From NCBI RefSeq assembly GCF_044647545.1, contig NZ_CP172818.1: a stretch of DNA of 64,000 nucleotides; one strand, 5' to 3'. The stretch comes from Escherichia coli (GTDB lineage Bacteria; Pseudomonadota; Gammaproteobacteria; Enterobacterales; Enterobacteriaceae). Shown here piece by piece: positions 672 to 62,680 of the stretch. Below the pieces are notes generated by a model. It saw only the letters and a list, made by a program, of their open reading frames with translations. It ran no database searches and was not told the DNA's origin. Position numbers and translations under genes: made by a program. Numbering within the stretch: position 1 is the stretch's first letter; the number at the start of each line of letters is the position of its first letter.

Positions 672-1088
672 TTAATCAATAAACAAGGCGGGAGAAATAC
701 CGAATCGCGTTGCCAGTTTTTTAGCGTGTTCCAGCGTTAATTTCCTCTTCCCGCTCAAAACGCGTGACACCATCGATTTACTGCCTATTTCCGGAAGATC
801 GGAAAGGGTTAAACCATATTGATCCATAAGGGTACGAATCACGGCTATACCGCCAGGCATGGCTTGAGCCATGGCATTAAATTCCACAAATTCGGGCGCT
901 GATTCTTCCCACGCGGTTATTTTGGCACACACCAGATCCAGTAAGGGGTTTTCAGGATCGTTGAGCAGCAGATGATCTACCAGTTCCAGCGCCTGGGTGT
1001 ATTGTTCCTCGTTCTGAATACCCGCCAGAAAAGGTGCCACAGCAGTTAGCTTTTCTCCTGCTTGCAAGATGTCGGCAATCGCAATCAT
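672..1088 (-). CDS. higA: HigA antitoxin (XRE-type HTH)
   Basis: 138 aa ORF; start ATG overlaps the stop of the upstream toxin reading frame (ATGA). Confidence 0.85.
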   Translation of the reverse strand: MIAIADILQAGEKLTAVAPFLAGIQNEEQYTQALELVDHLLLNDPENPLLDLVCAKITAWEESAPEFVEFNAMAQAMPGGIAVIRTLMDQYGLTLSDLPEIGSKSMVSRVLSGKRKLTLEHAKKLATRFGISPALFID

Positions 1089-1398
1089 TTTTTCCCCTTA
1101 GTACGATGAACGGCGGTAAAGAAATCGTATTCTTTATGCGTCATAACTTCACGTATGTAGCACTTTTGCGATTCAAAAAAGACCATTGCTACAACACGTA
1201 ATTCATTGCCCCGACATTGAAAACATAATGCTTATCCAGATATTTGAAGTTATCCAGAGAAGGGAATACTGCTTTTAATGACTCAGGTTTTTTGAAATAT
1301 CCCTTAGCAATCGTGTTCCCCAGAGCCACCAACTCCGTTTTATGTTGCGGGTATTTTTCCGCAGCATCTTTCAATGCTTTTTGAGTTATCAGGTGCAT
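1085..1398 (-). pseudogene. higB: HigB toxin (RelE/ParE-like) disrupted by a -1 frameshift
   Basis: N-terminal 66 residues in one frame (ORF 1189-1398, MHLITQKALKDAAEKYPQHK...), remainder (NELRVVAMVFFESQKCYIREVMTHKEYDFFTAVHRTKGKK) in a second frame ending in the ATGA overlap with higA; frames switch at a C4 run 1209-1212. Confidence 0.7.
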
Positions 1399-13390: not shown

Positions 13391-13414
13391 CGCTTAATGT
13401 AAGTCGTAATGACG

Positions 13415-13440
13415 AAGCCGCCTCTTCAGGCGGCTTTTTC
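13415..13440 (+). terminator. Rho-independent terminator after exuT
   Basis: aagccgcc-tcttca-ggcggcttttt. Confidence 0.6.
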
Positions 13441-13530
13441 AATCATGCGATTTATATTTTAACAATGGCATACGCATGCATAAAGTGGTATAATAACTTT
13501 GTCTGCCGCATTCCACTCCTGGAGACGCAT

Positions 13531-14346: not shown

Positions 14347-14651
14347 TCGTCGGTAAGCGAAAAGTATAAAGTGTCAGCCTGTGTAAATCCTCTCGCCTCC
14401 CTCCCCTGCATTCAGCAAAATCAGACTCCACGGACATGTAATTTTGATAACGAACAACGTTGACCTTTGTTACAATTAGATTCAATTTGAATTTATGCTT
14501 TTGAATGCTTTCTTATCTCACGATTTAACAGGGAATAGTTCAGGCTGTGTTGATGTATCAAACCCGCAAAACATACCAAAACAGCAATAACATTGCGGTA
14601 GTGCATCATTTAAAACCAGCGTGGCGTTAACCGATTCACCAGGAATAATGA

Positions 14652-16561: not shown

Positions 16562-16966
16562 ATGGCGGACACTCATCACGCGCAAGGGCCCGGTAAAAGC
16601 GTTCTGGGCATCGGGCAGCGAATTGTTTCCATCATGGTTGAAATGGTGGAAACACGTCTGCGGCTGGCGGTGGTGGAGCTGGAAGAGGAAAAAGCGAATC
16701 TCTTTCAACTTTTACTGATGCTGGGCCTGACGATGCTTTTCGCTGCATTTGGTCTTATGAGCCTGATGGTGCTAATTATTTGGGCGGTTGATCCGCAATA
16801 TCGCCTGAATGCGATGATTGCCACCACCGTGGTGTTGCTGCTACTGGCACTGATTGGCGGTATCTGGACGTTACGTAAATCGCGTAAATCCACCTTGCTG
16901 CGCCATACACGCCATGAGCTGGCAAACGATCGGCAGCTGCTCGAGGAGGAGTCCCGTGAGCAGTAA
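16562..16966 (+). CDS. yqjE: Inner membrane protein YqjE
   Basis: Start at MADTHHAQGPG gives 134 aa. Confidence 0.8.
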   Translation: MADTHHAQGPGKSVLGIGQRIVSIMVEMVETRLRLAVVELEEEKANLFQLLLMLGLTMLFAAFGLMSLMVLIIWAVDPQYRLNAMIATTVVLLLLALIGGIWTLRKSRKSTLLRHTRHELANDRQLLEEESREQ

Positions 16967-17255
16967 AGTCGAACATGAACGACGTAAGGCGCAACTGCTT
17001 AGCCAGATCCAGCAACAACGGCTGGATCTTTCCGCCACTCGTCGTGAATGGCTGGAGGCAACAGGCGCTTACGATCGTCGCTGGAATATGCTGTTGAGTC
17101 TGCGCTCCTGGGCGCTGGTTGGCAGTAGCGTGATGGCTATCTGGACGATTCGCCATCCTAATATGCTGGTCCGCTGGGCCAGACGCGGTTTTGGTGTATG
17201 GAGCGCCTGGCGTCTGGTTAAAACGACCCTCAAGCAGCAACAGCTTCGCGGTTAA
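16956..17255 (+). CDS. yqjK: Small protein YqjK (GTG start, overlaps yqjE stop)
   Basis: GTG at 16956 gives 99 aa (SSKVEHERRK...); no in-frame ATG at the expected position. Confidence 0.6.
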   Translation: MSSKVEHERRKAQLLSQIQQQRLDLSATRREWLEATGAYDRRWNMLLSLRSWALVGSSVMAIWTIRHPNMLVRWARRGFGVWSAWRLVKTTLKQQQLRG

Positions 17256-23931: not shown

Positions 23932-24645
<714 letters not shown>

Positions 24646-24893
24646 TTACCGAAAGCGTCAAAGAAAATGCTTATCTTATCGATCCAAAAATTAATTACAA
24701 TACAGATTTAAACATAGAGGATTCTAGCTCAGAGGAATTCCTTTCAGATAATACACTAGAGAAAGACGAAAATTCTCCTGACAATTGCTTTGAGGTCGTA
24801 AAATATAACACATATGAAGCTTATAACTCAGAGAAGCAATATTTTACCAGAGAGGACTATACGTATGATTACGACCTTTTAAATGCAATATAG
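24646..24893 (+). pseudogene. AT-rich 3' gene fragment, possibly the end of yhaC
   Basis: In-frame translation ...ENAYLIDPKINYNTDLNIEDSSSEEFLSDNTLEKDENSPDNCFEVVKYNTYEAYNSEKQYFTREDYTYDYDLLNAI*; position just upstream of the rnpB terminators; identity to yhaC not verified. Confidence 0.3.
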
Positions 24894-25032: not shown

Positions 25033-25409
<377 letters not shown>

Positions 25410-33730: not shown

Positions 33731-35011
33731 GTGAAACATCTGACAGAAATGGTGAGACAGCACAAAGAGGGCAAAACAAATGGGATTTATGCCGTTTGTT
33801 CCGCACATCCGCTGGTGCTGGAAGCTGCAATCCGCTACGCCAGTGCAAACCAAACGCCGTTACTGATTGAAGCAACCTCCAATCAGGTGGACCAGTTCGG
33901 CGGTTATACCGGAATGACGCCCGCCGATTTTCGCGGCTTTGTTTGTCAGCTCGCCGACTCGTTGAATTTCCCACAGGATGCGTTGATTCTGGGTGGCGAC
34001 CATCTGGGGCCAAACCGCTGGCAAAACCTGCCTGCCGCTCAGGCAATGGCCAATGCCGATGATTTGATTAAAAGCTACGTGGCGGCAGGATTCAAAAAAA
34101 TTCACCTTGATTGCAGCATGTCCTGTCAGGACGATCCGATTCCCTTAACTGATGACATCGTGGCCGAACGCGCCGCTCGTCTGGCGAAAGTGGCGGAAGA
34201 AACCTGCCGTGAACATTTTGGCGCGGCCGATCTGGAGTATGTCATTGGTACCGAAGTACCGGTACCTGGCGGCGCGCATGAAACCTTAAGCGAGCTGGCG
34301 GTCACCACGCCGGATGCCGCCCGCGCCACACTGGAAGCCCATCGCCACGCCTTTGAAAAGCAGGGCCTGAATGCCATCTGGCCACGCATTATTGCCCTGG
34401 TGGTTCAACCCGGCGTCGAATTCGATCACACCAACGTTATTGATTATCAGCCAGCTAAAGCGACCGCATTAAGCCAGATGGTCGAAAACTACGAAACGCT
34501 GATTTTCGAAGCGCACTCTACCGATTACCAAACGCCGCAATCGTTGCGCCAGCTGGTGATTGACCACTTTGCCATTCTGAAAGTTGGCCCGGCGCTGACC
34601 TTCGCCCTGCGTGAAGCTCTGTTCTCTCTGGCGGCGATTGAAGAAGAACTGGTGCCAGCAAAAGCCTGTTCTGGTCTGCGTCAGGTGCTGGAAAACGTGA
34701 TGCTCGACCGCCCGGAATACTGGCAAAGCCACTACCACGGTGACGGCAACGCGCGTCGTCTGGCGCGTGGTTATAGCTACTCGGATCGCGTGCGCTATTA
34801 CTGGCCGGACAGCCAGATTGATGACGCTTTCGCTCATCTGGTTCGTAATCTGGCGGATTCACCAATTCCGCTACCGCTCATCAGCCAGTATTTGCCGCTG
34901 CAATACGTGAAAGTTCGCTCCGGCGAGCTGCAGCCAACACCACGGGAACTCATTATCAACCATATTCAGGACATCCTGGCGCAGTACCACACAGCCTGTG
35001 AAGGCCAATAA
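33731..35011 (+). CDS. kbaZ: Tagatose-bisphosphate aldolase subunit KbaZ
   Basis: 426 aa ORF. Confidence 0.9.
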
Positions 35012-35517: not shown

Positions 35518-35919
35518 ATGGAAATCAGTCTGTTGCAGGCATTCGCGTTGGGCATTATCGCCTTTATCGCTGGCCTGGATATGTTTAACGGCCTAACCCA
35601 TATGCACCGCCCGGTGGTCCTCGGCCCGTTGGTCGGGCTGGTACTTGGCGATCTGCATACCGGTATTTTAACCGGCGGTACGCTGGAACTGGTGTGGATG
35701 GGGCTGGCCCCGCTGGCGGGCGCACAGCCGCCTAACGTGATTATCGGTACTATCGTCGGCACGGCGTTTGCCATTACTACTGGCGTGAAACCCGATGTCG
35801 CGGTCGGTGTCGCCGTACCTTTCGCTGTCGCAGTACAGATGGGGATTACCTTCCTGTTCTCGGTGATGTCCGGCGTGATGTCCCGCGGCGACCTGGCAAC
35901 AAACCCGTGCCGCGTTTGA
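35518..35919 (+). pseudogene. agaW: Truncated PTS EIIC gene (agaW'), K-12-type
   Basis: 133 aa EIIC N-terminal fragment ending abruptly (...DLATNPCRV*). Confidence 0.8.
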
Positions 35920-38986: not shown

Positions 38987-39463
38987 ATGAGCAGTCCAAA
39001 TATTCTCTTAACCCGTATTGATAACCGTCTGGTTCACGGTCAGGTTGGCGTGACCTGGACATCCACCATCGGTGCGAATCTGTTGGTAGTCGTGGATGAT
39101 GTTGTCGCTAACGATGATATTCAACAGAAATTAATGGGTATTACCGCAGAAACCTACGGCTTTGGCATTCGTTTCTTTACTATCGAAAAAACCATTAACG
39201 TCATCGGCAAAGCTGCACCGCATCAGAAGATCTTCCTGATTTGCCGTACGCCACAAACGGTACGTAAATTGGTAGAAGGTGGTATTGACCTGAAAGATGT
39301 CAACGTCGGCAATATGCATTTCTCGGAAGGGAAAAAGCAAATCAGCAGTAAAGTTTATGTCGATGACCAGGATCTCACGGACTTACATTTTATTAAACAA
39401 CGTGGCGTGAATGTTTTCATTCAGGACGTCCCTGGCGATCAAAAAGAACAAATCCCTGACTAA
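38987..39463 (+). CDS. agaB: PTS galactosamine-specific EIIB
   Basis: 158 aa ORF; paralogous to agaV (LxRIDxRLxHGQVG N-terminus). Confidence 0.9.
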   Translation: MSSPNILLTRIDNRLVHGQVGVTWTSTIGANLLVVVDDVVANDDIQQKLMGITAETYGFGIRFFTIEKTINVIGKAAPHQKIFLICRTPQTVRKLVEGGIDLKDVNVGNMHFSEGKKQISSKVYVDDQDLTDLHFIKQRGVNVFIQDVPGDQKEQIPD

Positions 39464-45149: not shown

Positions 45150-45740
45150 GTGCAAGAAAGAATTAAAGCTTGCTTCACTGAAAGCATTCAAACTCAAATT
45201 GCGGCGGCAGAGGCGCTTCCGGATGCCATCTCGCGTGCAGCTATGACGCTGGTTCAGTCTCTGCTCAATGGCAACAAAATCCTCTGTTGTGGTAATGGAA
45301 CTTCCGCTGCCAATGCACAGCATTTTGCTGCCAGCATGATCAACCGTTTCGAAACGGAGCGGCCCAGCTTACCTGCCATTGCACTAAATACTGATAATGT
45401 TGTCTTAACGGCAATTGCCAACGATCGCTTACATGATGAAGTGTATGCAAAACAGGTGCGGGCGCTGGGTCATGCGGGAGATGTATTGTTAGCCATTTCC
45501 ACCCGTGGCAACAGCCGCGATATTGTAAAAGCGGTAGAAGCTGCCGTTACGCGTGATATGACCATTGTGGCATTAACCGGCTATGACGGCGGTGAACTTG
45601 CAGGTTTGTTAGGGCCACAGGATGTGGAGATCCGCATTCCTTCGCATCGTAGTGCTCGCATTCAGGAGATGCATATGCTGACGGTAAATTGCCTGTGCGA
45701 TCTGATCGATAACACGCTTTTCCCTCACCAGGATGTTTAA
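45150..45740 (+). CDS. diaA: DnaA initiator-associating protein (SIS domain)
   Basis: 196 aa ORF. Confidence 0.9.
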
Positions 45741-49611: not shown

Positions 49612-50101
49612 AGTGCTCGTGATACTCAACCAGACCAGTTACACCGTTCAGCGCGTCATCCGCTAAACGATGTACCTGGAAGGCACTTTCAGTGCCCGGC
49701 CAGCGGCAACGCAGATCGTGATGTGCCGCCAGTTCAAAGCCGAAACGGCTGTACAGCGCCGGATCGCCCAGCGTCACCACTGCGGCATAGCCGAACTCAT
49801 TAAGCGAATCGAGTCCTTCATAGACCAGTTGGCGTGCCAGCCCCTGTCCACGGTATTTTTCATCTACCGCCAGCGGTGCCATGCCGACCCATTGCAGGTC
49901 TTCGCCCTGCACATCAACCGGACTAAATGCCACATAGCCAATGACCTGACCTTCGTCATCTGTCGCCACCAGCCCCAGCGTCAGAAAGCCATCTTCACGC
50001 AGATCGTGAACCAGCTTCGCTTCCGCATCACTTTCGAATGAACGACGCAGCAGGGCATCAATACCCGGCGCATCAATGGGAATTTCTACTCGAATTAGCA
50101 T
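49598..50101 (-). CDS. yhbS: GNAT-family N-acetyltransferase
   Basis: 167 aa ORF. Confidence 0.85.
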
Positions 50102-50619
50102 GGTTCACCTACCGATGTCTGTTTGGTTTCAGGCGCGGTTTTCATTCCCGCCTCAACAAAATCCGCCAGTTGCAGCAGCATCATGCGTAAGGCTTTCGGC
50201 ATTTGCTCCAGTTCAATGGCGTCCATCAGGTTTTTCACATACAGCCCCAGCTCCGTATCGCCTTCAATTACCAGCCGACGCTGGAAGAAGAGCGTATCCG
50301 GATCTTGTTTACGCGCCGCAATCATCAGCAGATCGCTGGCGTCGGCACTAAAACTCACATCAGCTTGCGCGTTCTGGCTAACGACCAGTTTGCCATTCAC
50401 CACCGAGGTAAACCATTGCAGGTCAATATCACGCACATGAATACTTAACCAGCGGCCTTCAAGAAACTCCAGCTCGCCATCATCCAACGCCTGGCGGAAT
50501 TGCCAGCTTAAGACCTGCTCAAGAACCTGGCGTTTTAGCGCAAATGGCGTCAGTTTTACCGGTACACTCAACAGAGATGGCCCCAAATGCACAATACGGG
50601 AACGCAGTTTATCCAACAC
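50095..50619 (-). CDS. ubiT: SCP2-domain protein, anaerobic ubiquinone biosynthesis accessory factor (GTG start)
   Basis: GTG start yielding (M)LDKLRSRIVHLGPS, 174 aa. Confidence 0.8.
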   Translation of the reverse strand: MLDKLRSRIVHLGPSLLSVPVKLTPFALKRQVLEQVLSWQFRQALDDGELEFLEGRWLSIHVRDIDLQWFTSVVNGKLVVSQNAQADVSFSADASDLLMIAARKQDPDTLFFQRRLVIEGDTELGLYVKNLMDAIELEQMPKALRMMLLQLADFVEAGMKTAPETKQTSVGEPC

Positions 50620-50827
50620 GAGTTTTACTCCCTGTTTCAACAATCATCCTATTTTGCCATATCAGAAAAATAACATAGCGGTATAAATCAACAATTCCAT
50701 ATGAAATTGCTGCTACCACCAATACAACTTTAACTGCCTTAAATCAAAAATTGTCGCAGCAAGGTTAACTAAAATCCCAGTTCGTTAACATTTTTGCGCT
50801 TTGATAGCGCAACCTTCAGGAAAAATT

Positions 50828-58268: not shown

Positions 58269-58376
58269 TTCCCACTCCCGAAGACCACGGTTGAATGAAC
58301 GTCCTGTTCCCGGTTGCTAACAAGGCGTCCTGCCCGGTTAAAAGCCCCCCGCCGCAGCGGAGGGCAAATGGCAACC

Positions 58377-60512
58377 TTACTCGCCCTGTTCAGCAGCCGG
58401 AGCTTCCGGTGCTGCAGCAGGTTGAGACTGCTCAGTCGCTTCTTTAATGCTCAGACGGATACGGCCCTGGCGATCAACTTCCAGAACTTTCACCGGTACT
58501 TCCTGACCCATCTGCAGGTAATCGGTCACTTTCTCAACGCGTTTGTCAGCGATCTGAGAGATGTGTACCAGACCTTCTTTACCGCCGCCGATGGCAACAA
58601 ATGCGCCAAAGTCAACGATACGGGTCACTTTACCATTGTAGACGCGGCCCACTTCGATTTCTGCAGTGATCTCTTCGATACGACGAATAGCATGTTTCGC
58701 TTTCTCGCCGTCGGTCGCTGCGATTTTCACAGTACCGTCATCTTCGATTTCGATGGTGGTGCCAGTTTCTTCGGTCAGAGCACGGATAACAGAACCGCCT
58801 TTACCGATAACGTCTTTGATCTTGTCCGGGTTGATCTTGATGGTATGGATACGCGGAGCGAACTCAGAGATATCGCCGCGCGGCGCGTTGATCGCCTGTT
58901 CCATTACGCCCAGGATATGCAGACGCGCACCTTTAGCCTGGTTCAGTGCAACCTGCATGATCTCTTTGGTGATACCTTCAATTTTGATATCCATCTGCAA
59001 TGCAGAGATACCGTCGCGGGAACCCGCAACTTTGAAGTCCATATCGCCCAGGTGATCTTCGTCGCCCAAAATGTCAGACAGTACAACGTAGTTGTCGCCT
59101 TCTTTCACCAGACCCATTGCGATACCCGCAACAGCAGCTTTGATCGGCACACCTGCGTCCATCAGCGCCAGAGACGCGCCGCACACGGAAGCCATAGAAG
59201 AAGAACCGTTGGATTCGGTGATTTCAGACACCACACGTACGGTGTACGGGAATTTGTCCATATCCGGCATGACTGCCAGCACGCCGCGCTTCGCCAGACG
59301 ACCGTGACCAATTTCACGACGCTTCGGAGAACCGACCATGCCGGTTTCGCCTACGGAGTACGGAGGGAAGTTGTAGTGGAACAGGAAGGTGTCAGTACGT
59401 TCGCCCATCAGTTCATCAAGAACTTGCGCGTCACGTGCAGTACCCAGCGTTGCGGTAACCAGCGCCTGAGTTTCACCACGGGTGAAAAGCGCAGAACCGT
59501 GAGTACGCGGCAGCACGCCAGTACGCACATCCAGACCACGAATCATATCTTTTTCACGACCGTCGATACGCGGTTCGCCTGCCAGTACGCGGCTACGAAC
59601 AACGTTTTTCTCGATAGCGTGCAGAATTTCACCCAGTTCGTTTTCGTCCAGGGTTTCATCTTCAGCAAGCAGCGTCGCGATGGTTTCAGATTTGATGACA
59701 TCAACCTGCGCATAACGCTCTTGTTTGTCGGTGATGCGGTAAGCATCGCTCAGACGAGCTTCAGCCAGTGCAGCAACGCGCGCGTTCAGCGCTTCGTTTA
59801 CCGGCTCCGGCTGCCAGTCCCAACGCGGTTTACCGGCTTCTTTCACCAGTTCATTGATGTTCTGAATAACAACCTGCTGTTGTTCATGACCGAACACTAC
59901 TGCGCCCAGCATCTGGTCTTCGCTCAGCAGTTCAGCTTCAGATTCAACCATCAGTACAGCTGCTTCAGTACCCGCAACAACCAGATCCAGTTTGCTCTCT
60001 TTCAGCTCGTCCTGAGTCGGGTTCAGTACGTACTGGTCATTGATGTAACCTACGCGGGCAGCACCAATCGGACCATTGAACGGAATACCAGACAGAGACA
60101 GTGCTGCGGAAGCACCAATCATCGCGACGATATCCGGGTTAACTTGCGGGTTAACAGAAACCACGGTGGCGATAACCTGAACTTCGTTGACGAAGCCTTC
60201 CGGGAACAGCGGGCGAATCGGGCGGTCAATCAGACGCGCGATCAGGGTTTCGCCTTCGCTTGGGCGGCCTTCACGACGGAAGAAGCTACCCGGGATACGA
60301 CCAGCAGCGTAGGTACGCTCCTGATAGTTAACGGTCAGTGGGAAGAAGTCCTGACCTGGTTTGGCTTTTTTCTGGCCAACAACGGTAACGAATACCGCGG
60401 TGTCATCCATGCTAACCATAACAGCGGCAGTAGCCTGACGAGCCATCATGCCGGTTTCCAGAGTCACGGTGTGTTGGCCGTACTGGAATTTACGAACGAT
60501 CGGATTAAGCAA
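58377..60512 (-). CDS. pnp: Polynucleotide phosphorylase (TTG start)
   Basis: 711 aa from a TTG at 60510-60512 ((M)[20 protein letters not shown]). Confidence 0.9.
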
Positions 60513-60711
60513 TGTAATATCCTTTCTCTTTCTTAGACAGTACCTTACGGCACTGGTGTTAATACCCGATCTTCTGCGCATCCTCGCGACTAATGACAAC
60601 CCTAACCCAGCCCAATGTGGGTAAAGCCTCTCATTAGCCGCGCGAACCTCTGCAACGGAAGATCATTCATAGCAACAATACATTAGTTTCCAGTGAATTG
60701 CTGCCGTCAGC
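60513..60711 (-). promoter_or_regulatory. pnp 5' leader (autoregulatory/RNase III-processed region by position)
   Basis: ~200 nt untranslated region between the rpsO terminator and the pnp TTG start. Confidence 0.45.
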
Positions 60712-60745
60712 TTGAAAAAAGGGGCCACTCAGGCCCCCTTTTCTG
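60712..60745 (-). terminator. rpsO rho-independent terminator
   Basis: Plus strand gaaaaaaggggccactcaggcccccttttc, a GC-rich stem flanked by A and T runs. Confidence 0.7.
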
Positions 60746-60758
60746 AAACTCGCAAGAA

Positions 60759-61124
<366 letters not shown>

Positions 61125-62597: not shown

Positions 62598-62680
62598 TGG
62601 CCTGATAAGACGCGCCAGCGTCGCATCAGGCAATCCATGCCGGATGCGGCGTAAACGCCTTATCCCGCATGGAACCCTAA
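62598..62680. repeat. REP element between infB and rbfA
   Basis: gcctgataagacgcgccagcgtcgcatcaggca ... gccggatgcggcgtaaacgccttatcc. Confidence 0.6.

Follow-up and report, generated by a model that had tools for sequence, protein, structure and literature searches.

Non-AUG initiation codons of pnp, yqjK and ubiT in a 64-kb Escherichia coli chromosomal segment and conservation of the pnp UUG

The DNA analyzed here (64,000 nt in full, hereafter the window) is a 64-kb segment of the Escherichia coli chromosome that matches several RefSeq genomes, NZ_CP033850.1 among them, with 100% identity over long stretches, and that carries the gene order fadH-higBA-rlmG-ygjPQR-alx-sstT-uxaCA-exuTR-yqjA...yqjDEK...gar-aga...ubiTUV...deaD-nlpI-pnp-rpsO-truB-rbfA-infB'. 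A preliminary description of this sequence had assigned non-ATG starts to three of its genes, pnp (TTG), yqjK (GTG) and ubiT (GTG). All three codons are found in the sequence at the positions assigned to them and the same starts are used by RefSeq: in the RefSeq/PGAP annotation of the near-identical NZ_CP033850.1, pnp (711 aa, TTG), yqjK (99 aa, GTG) and ubiT (174 aa, GTG) begin at exactly the same positions. These non-ATG starts are already known as standard E. coli annotation and are ordinary biology; judged from alignments, the only mildly new element appears to be the depth to which UUG is conserved in pnp and GUG in ubiT.

Mapping of 66 annotated coding sequences from the RefSeq/PGAP annotation onto the window revealed 60 ATG, five GTG and one TTG start codons, such that non-ATG codons initiate six of the 66 genes (9%). 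Three of these six were absent from the preliminary list, which was therefore incomplete. They are the GTG starts of kbaZ (33731..33733, plus strand, with the Shine-Dalgarno (SD) sequence GGAGAGG upstream), of diaA (45150..45152, plus strand, with AAGGA upstream) and of yqiM (14547..14549, plus strand), which encodes a 27-aa small protein and whose K-12 counterpart, b4787, is also annotated with GTG; all three are taken from the RefSeq annotation. Across the E. coli genome, non-ATG starts occur at roughly the same rate as in the window. There is accordingly no enrichment of non-ATG starts in this segment and no excess over chance.

The pnp initiation codon, TTG (UUG in the mRNA), resides at 60510..60512 on the minus strand, where it appears as CAA on the plus strand, and opens the 711-aa coding sequence annotated by RefSeq (58377..60512, minus strand); the codons that come after it specify the N-terminus known for PNPase. 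An SD sequence, AAGGA (60520..60524, minus strand), is located 7 nt upstream of the TTG. The duplex it would form with the anti-SD (-5.4 kcal/mol) is no better than those of an upstream ATG (-5.3 kcal/mol) or an upstream TTG (-5.2 kcal/mol). Biochemical and proteomic data are available for this codon. A toeprint that depends on both 30S subunits and tRNA-fMet has been mapped 15 nt from the pnp UUG, and a TTG-to-TGA mutant was constructed in the same study as a means of inhibiting the initiation of pnp translation (Fontaine et al., 2016; PMC5029454). In the TRAINSPOTTER N-terminomics data, the row for b3164 contains a formyl-Met-derived peptide, MLNPIVR, that maps to the TTG (NC_000913:3311166-3311168); Ribo-RET and INRI-seq likewise mark this initiation site, and the table includes no alternative site for pnp (PMC13245402, supplementary table). 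Thus, the N-terminal proteomics and start-site ribosome profiling that the preliminary description had proposed as a check exist for pnp, and they confirm the TTG (PMC13245402). With a toeprint and an fMet peptide at the same codon, the use of UUG as the pnp start is experimentally proven. Of the three genes, only pnp is covered by the supplements of the TRAINSPOTTER, INRI-seq, TetRP, Stringer et al. 2021 and Salmonella riboproteogenomics studies, in which no start-site data for yqjK or ubiT were found.

The pnp reading frame remains open upstream of the TTG as far as an in-frame ATG at -23 codons (60579..60581, minus strand), which would yield a protein of 734 aa and which we reject as the start. 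Protein Data Bank entries 3CDI and 3CDJ carry an N-terminal extension that fits a construct built on this longer reading, and the later PNPase structures 3GCM and 7OGK begin with MLNPIV, in keeping with the 711-aa coding sequence. The 734-aa reading is that of the old MG1655 annotation. The upstream ATG falls within the paired 3' arm of the predicted leader hairpin, with a GAGG immediately abutting it. Just three of the 45 related pnp loci described below have an ATG at a comparable distance (at -23 in E. albertii and at -24 in loci L009 and L045), and most of the other loci contain an in-frame stop codon nearer to the TTG than that offset. On the opposite strand, a 740-aa open reading frame antisense to pnp (58314-60536, plus strand) was considered as a gene and rejected as a shadow of the pnp frame; stop codons break it in most other genera, and it is open here because E. 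coli pnp contains no TTA, CTA or TCA codons.

Comparison of 78 orthologous pnp loci, collected by a genome-collection scan, revealed that the aligned start codon is TTG in 45 of 45 loci from Enterobacterales and Orbaceae, with AAGGA 7-8 nt upstream. In other orders the start is one codon away and is GTG in 19 of the 78 loci (Photobacterium, Aeromonas, Idiomarina, Shewanella, Rheinheimera and some Haemophilus) or ATG in 14 (Vibrio, two Haemophilus, Psychromonas and Ca. Photodesmus); the assignment for Shewanella is ambiguous, as an in-frame ATG occurs two codons upstream. Across 43 distinct orthologous contexts, the SD positions from -12 to -8 are 81-100% conserved. The coding sequences themselves have diverged extensively at synonymous sites, with only one of 144 four-fold degenerate sites invariant among 46 TTG sequences and a mean major-allele frequency of 0.60. 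The first T of the start codon is nevertheless invariant, although changes from T to A or from T to G would still leave a start codon, and this pattern in the alignments indicates that the pnp UUG itself is under purifying selection. Within the species, 5426 complete E. coli genomes were searched with a 45-nt probe centered on the TTG; 5425 matched, 5414 of these identically, through a 28-nt seed that a central mismatch would have blocked. Considered more broadly, AUG is the start codon favored by selection, most strongly in conserved, highly expressed genes (Belinky et al., PMC5622118), and the retention of TTG by pnp runs opposite to this general trend.

The start of yqjK is a GTG at 16956..16958 on the plus strand, which is followed by codons for SSKVEHERRK and is annotated at the same place in both RefSeq and K-12 MG1655. 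It opens a 99-aa coding sequence (16956..17255, plus strand; RefSeq) in which Pfam domain PF13997 spans residues 14-86. The corresponding SD, GGAGG (16945..16949, plus strand), lies 6 nt upstream within the sequence GAGGAGGAG, inside the end of yqjE, and gives an anti-SD duplex of -11.8 kcal/mol, versus +1.9 kcal/mol for an in-frame ATG 14 codons upstream (16914..16916, plus strand) that lacks an SD and is rejected as the start. When E. coli is compared with homologous DNA from eight other genera, the homologous codon is GTG in five genera (E. coli, Salmonella, Citrobacter koseri, Enterobacter and Kosakonia), ATG in three (Siccibacter, Phytobacter and Intestinirhabdus) and TTG in one (Superficieibacter). 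GTG, ATG and TTG would otherwise specify Val, Met and Leu, and their interchange at one position marks an initiation codon rather than a sense codon. Of the eight other genera, five have an in-frame stop codon 1-3 codons upstream and a sixth, Salmonella, has one at -11; an SD of the GGAGGA type (GAAGGA in one case) occupies the same place in all eight. The 45-nt context of the yqjK start is present in 5375 of 5426 E. coli genomes.

Only two of the eight genera compared with E. coli have an ATG at the offset of the upstream ATG of yqjK. In K-12 an in-frame TAG comes two codons after this ATG, before the GTG is reached; the allele carried by the window leaves this frame open, which accounts for the occasional 113-aa YqjK entries in databases. 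By this reading of the sequence, a minor longer form of YqjK may be made from the window's allele. The GTG start itself is embedded in the last codons of yqjE, which ends at 16966, and the two E. coli genes share 11 nt; in Salmonella, C. koseri, Siccibacter, Kosakonia and Superficieibacter they share the classic 4 nt. This arrangement suggests that yqjK is probably translationally coupled to the preceding gene in the yqjD-yqjE-yqjK cluster.

For ubiT (yhbT), the initiation codon is a GTG at 50617..50619 on the minus strand, followed by codons for LDKLRSRIVH and annotated as the start by RefSeq. It begins a coding sequence of 174 aa (50095..50619, minus strand; RefSeq) that contains an SCP2 domain (Pfam PF02036), and it is preceded at a distance of 8 nt by the SD sequence GGGAG (50628..50632, minus strand); a GGAG-type SD is common to enterobacterial ubiT homologs. 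The anti-SD duplex available to this GTG (-7.7 kcal/mol) compares with -4.0 kcal/mol for upstream TTG codons and +0.6 kcal/mol for a downstream GTG. Thirty-seven of the pnp loci carry ubiT approximately 8-10 kb downstream of pnp, and one of these copies is disrupted and was left out. Among the remaining 36 intact homologs, which extend from Escherichia to Vibrio and Photobacterium and share 46-98% protein identity, the aligned start is GTG in 35 and ATG in one. In most loci an in-frame stop codon occurs 3-15 codons upstream, and all of the 13 four-fold degenerate sites vary among these homologs. The 45-nt start context is present in 5424 of 5426 E. coli genomes. By alignment, the ubiT GTG, like the pnp TTG, is kept by selection.

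Other candidate starts for ubiT were considered and rejected. TTG codons at -8 and -7 are found again in E. albertii and Citrobacter, the two closest relatives, and in no other homolog; the TTG directly adjacent to the GTG (+1) corresponds to a second codon that specifies Ile or Phe in many homologs; and the GTG at +9 is without an SD. The second codon of E. coli ubiT is thus itself a TTG, and it has the same SD as the GTG. An Fnr site, F2, and a proximal promoter, ubiTp2, have been described for this gene (PMC10470549). By an approximate reading of coordinates, the 5' end of the ubiTp2 transcript lies about at the upstream TTG, an estimate by which the GTG alone would be left with an SD on that transcript.

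Several features are shared by the three starts. Each is an in-frame NUG at the 5' end of a conserved coding region, and alignments of orthologs begin at the same codon. Each has an SD sequence 6-8 nt upstream; for yqjK and ubiT its anti-SD duplex is clearly stronger than those of the competing starts, whereas for pnp it is not. The position of the start is conserved among orthologs in all three cases, whereas upstream extensions are not conserved and upstream in-frame stops are common, and the start contexts are essentially invariant over approximately 5400 E. coli genomes. With high confidence, therefore, we regard the three codons as genuine initiation codons of known E. coli annotation that are read as fMet by initiator tRNA, each with an SD placed 6-8 nt upstream. 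The assertion in the preliminary description that each frame attains its full length only from a non-ATG codon holds for the assignment of all three starts, but not for the word "only," as in-frame upstream ATG codons are present for both pnp and yqjK.

The pnp start is set within an autoregulation module that is present in the window in its entirety, comprising the rpsO terminator, a long leader hairpin, the SD, the UUG and, on the opposite strand, SraG. The hairpin (60569..60664, minus strand) is located between the rpsO terminator and the pnp SD, has a predicted fold of approximately 37 base pairs with a z score of -3.9, and corresponds to the autoregulatory stem-loop processed by RNase III (PMC5029454); its processing in the window is predicted from the fold. 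The antisense sRNA SraG (60571..60742, plus strand), opposite the leader, is recognized by Rfam model RF00082 with 162 bits versus a gathering score of 50. Published work has established that RNase III cuts the leader hairpin, that the resulting duplex is removed and degraded in a PNPase-dependent manner before RNase E attacks the transcript, that CsrA binds over the SD of the processed transcript, and that there is in addition an RNase III-independent translational repression in which PNPase competes with S1 (PMC5029454). Moreover, SraG blocks the pnp toeprint, and hence the initiation complex, and the real SraG promoter adjoins the pnp SD (PMC5029454).

The preliminary description had associated the rare TTG with this translational autoregulation. 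Such a link is a plausible conjecture; the regulators described so far target the leader hairpin and the SD region. Among the papers covered by the literature search, none ascribed to start-codon identity a part in pnp autoregulation, and none reported a UUG-to-AUG change in pnp. A hairpin of 27-49 base pairs is predicted in most pnp loci with TTG. The median is 36 bp in the TTG lineages, versus 23 bp in GTG loci and 23 bp in ATG loci, values that reflect few independent evolutionary transitions; Vibrio pnp, for example, combines an ATG start with shorter hairpins. A functional link between hairpin length and start-codon type was considered on this basis and set aside, since the trend is suggestive, but stems from very few independent transitions and is phylogenetically confounded. 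The co-occurrence of a conserved TTG with a long leader hairpin would nonetheless be compatible with a connection between the start codon and autoregulation, subject to the same phylogenetic confounding.

One interpretation, which we advance tentatively and which may well prove incorrect, is that in Enterobacterales selection has made the weak pnp UUG an integral element of the circuit that maintains PNPase homeostasis. A weak UUG would hold the intrinsic rate of pnp initiation low, and at a low rate of initiation CsrA, the competition between PNPase and S1, and SraG could control PNPase output efficiently at the ribosome-binding site; attack by RNase E on poorly translated pnp mRNA could add to this control. 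If this interpretation is true, slow initiation lets CsrA, PNPase/S1 competition, SraG and RNase E win a kinetic race at the ribosome-binding site, and replacement of UUG by AUG in pnp would blunt both autoregulation and cold-shock control. The supporting observations are the invariance of TTG (45/45) at near-saturated synonymous divergence and its co-occurrence with a leader hairpin of approximately 36 bp, observations that, as far as we have found, appear to be new.

A competing view is that the non-ATG starts are neutral historical accidents without functional significance, whose presence together in the window merely reflects the use of GTG or TTG by roughly one gene in ten. Six non-ATG genes among 66 is indeed an ordinary rate by the genome-wide figure, and the start codon of yqjK changes freely from genus to genus between GTG, ATG and TTG. 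We consider this view unlikely, as pnp and ubiT retain TTG and GTG, respectively, at a divergence where synonymous sites are near saturation (invariant four-fold sites, 1/144 and 0/13), and do so despite selection favoring AUG (Belinky et al., PMC5622118). Alternatively, the pnp UUG might be kept not by translation or autoregulation but by overlapping constraints, such as the promoter of antisense SraG, the CsrA site or local mRNA structure. Read on the opposite strand, the spacer between the pnp SD and start codon gives a TAATAT -10 box, the SraG -10 element has been placed near the pnp SD by Fontaine et al. (PMC5029454), and positions -3 to -1 are also 79-98% conserved. By our own reading of the sequence, however, made without coordinate confirmation in that paper (PMC5029454), the start codon lies outside the SraG -10 hexamer. 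Within the hexamer, spacer positions -7, -5 and -4 vary (major alleles of 47-58%) while T+1 is invariant, and TTG persists where the leader differs strongly, as in Gilliamella, Orbaceae and insect symbionts. Overlapping constraints of this kind thus seem a rather improbable explanation. Finally, the possibility that the true starts are the upstream in-frame ATG codons, so that PNPase would have 734 aa (from 60581) and YqjK 113 aa (from 16914), with the TTG and GTG as mere internal Leu and Val codons, is favored by the open frames in this window and by the practical use of these ATGs in the 3CDI/3CDJ constructs and in 113-aa E. coli YqjK entries, but is already largely refuted and highly improbable, given the toeprint and formyl-Met peptide at the pnp UUG with no extended N-terminus in the N-terminomics table (PMC5029454; PMC13245402), the sequestered and sporadic occurrence of the pnp ATG, and the absence of an SD, the rarity among genera and the K-12 stop codon that attend the ATG of yqjK.

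Initiation at the three non-AUG codons therefore remains the favored reading, and correct assignment of such start sites matters for annotation and for construct design. The early PNPase crystal constructs 3CDI and 3CDJ include residues derived from the 5' leader, apparently as a result of choosing the wrong upstream ATG. For pnp and ubiT, the deep conservation of a weak start in the alignments suggests that expression may be deliberately capped at initiation. The rest of the findings confirm facts at the textbook level.

Among known systems, infC, which encodes IF3, offers an instructive parallel: it begins with AUU, IF3 discriminates against this start codon itself, and a change to AUG abolishes control. 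Like infC, pnp is a gene for an RNA-metabolism or translation factor that combines a rare, weak start with negative autoregulation. PNPase is not known to sense the start codon, nor is pnp known to be under control resembling that exerted at the infC start codon. Relative to the published pnp autoregulation module, the mechanisms described target the leader duplex and the SD region (PMC5029454), and our literature search found no role for start-codon identity in them. The start of yqjK resembles the overlapping stop/start arrangements of the GTGA/ATGA type that are associated with coupling, in that it overlaps the end of yqjE, by 4 nt in five other genera; it differs from the classic 4-nt overlap in E. 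coli, where the yqjE frame extends 7 nt further, to a TAA, and produces the 11-nt overlap. The closest correspondence is with canonical E. coli initiation at GUG and UUG, which shares the combination of a NUG codon and an SD sequence and decoding as fMet, the pnp peptide starting with Met from a TTG; rpsT is listed with a TTG start in the same N-terminomics table as pnp (PMC13245402). There is no material difference from this canonical GUG/UUG class, of which pnp, yqjK and ubiT are ordinary members.

In the orthologous pnp loci L005-L048, drawn from a scan of a genome collection, the three bases preceding the TTG start codon (positions -3 to -1) are ATT in most Enterobacterales, generating the sequence AUU-UUG in the transcript. 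Among the distinct start contexts of these loci, A occupies position -3 in 98% and T occupies position -1 in 93%, whereas the corresponding bases in E. coli pnp are ACA. The ATT may reflect a preference for an A/U-rich enhancer, a -10 box on the antisense strand, or something else. The two Edwardsiella loci (L037 and L038) carry an in-frame ATG two codons upstream of the conserved TTG (aaggaatATGactTTG). Because this additional ATG lies merely 2-3 nt from the Shine-Dalgarno sequence, the choice between it and the conserved TTG as the Edwardsiella start codon is ambiguous.

An open reading frame of 740 amino acids (58314-60536, plus strand) runs antisense over the entire pnp gene. E. coli pnp makes no use of TTA, CTA, or TCA codons, and the antisense frame is therefore free of stops across the gene. 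In most other genera the same frame is interrupted by 1-56 stops, and we thus rejected this candidate gene as a shadow ORF. Counting only RNA matches that score at or above the Rfam gathering threshold, the window contains SraG, an sRNA encoded opposite the pnp leader (60571-60742, plus strand), the autoregulatory leader of S15 (rpsO) (60972-61086, minus strand), naRNA4/CssrE between rbfA and infB (62599-62669, minus strand), and the RNase P RNA rnpB (25033-25409, minus strand).

At the yqjE/yqjK junction, the two E. coli genes overlap by 11 nt (16956-16966), as the TGA at the junction is out of frame with yqjE and reading continues to a TAA. The classic 4-nt overlap (GTGA, ATGA, or TTGA) is found in Salmonella, C. 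koseri, Siccibacter, Kosakonia, and Superficieibacter. Three bases near the yqjK start differ between the window and K-12 (within 16914-16922 and 16974-16976). Upstream of the GTG start codon, the window has CTGG in place of the TTAG of K-12, by which an in-frame TAG is lost, and codon 7 of yqjK is CAT (His) rather than CGT (Arg). The 45 nt surrounding the yqjK start match the window exactly in only 51 of the 5426 complete E. coli genomes; this stretch covers the codon-7 site, with the CTGG/TTAG site falling outside it.

The higB toxin gene (1085-1398, minus strand) is a frameshifted pseudogene according to the annotation of an identical RefSeq genome, in which the adjoining higA is intact. 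An IS1 element (23936-24651) is flanked by a truncated cyuP and by a yhaC remnant adjoining rnpB, and takes the place of an approximately 12-kb segment that carries the tdc operon along with tdcR, yhaB, and the greater part of yhaC. This segment is retained in K-12 and in the near-identical genome NZ_CP033850.1; the same deletion, likewise bounded by IS1, appears in the annotation of NZ_AP022098.1 and of three further genomes. The genes exuT and exuR adjoin one another in the window (intergenic region 13391-13530), as they do in K-12, and in NZ_CP033850.1 they are separated by a 5.3-kb CS1-type fimbrial operon encoding a chaperone, major subunit, usher, and tip adhesin. At 35884-35893 and 39152-39160, the window lacks sequence that is present in NZ_CP033850.1: approximately 2.3 kb of the aga cluster and the IS1 by which the PTS IIB gene is split in that strain. 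The missing aga segment extends from the 3′ end of agaW through agaE and agaF into the 5′ portion of nagA, an absence that we take to be reminiscent of the aga deletion of K-12.
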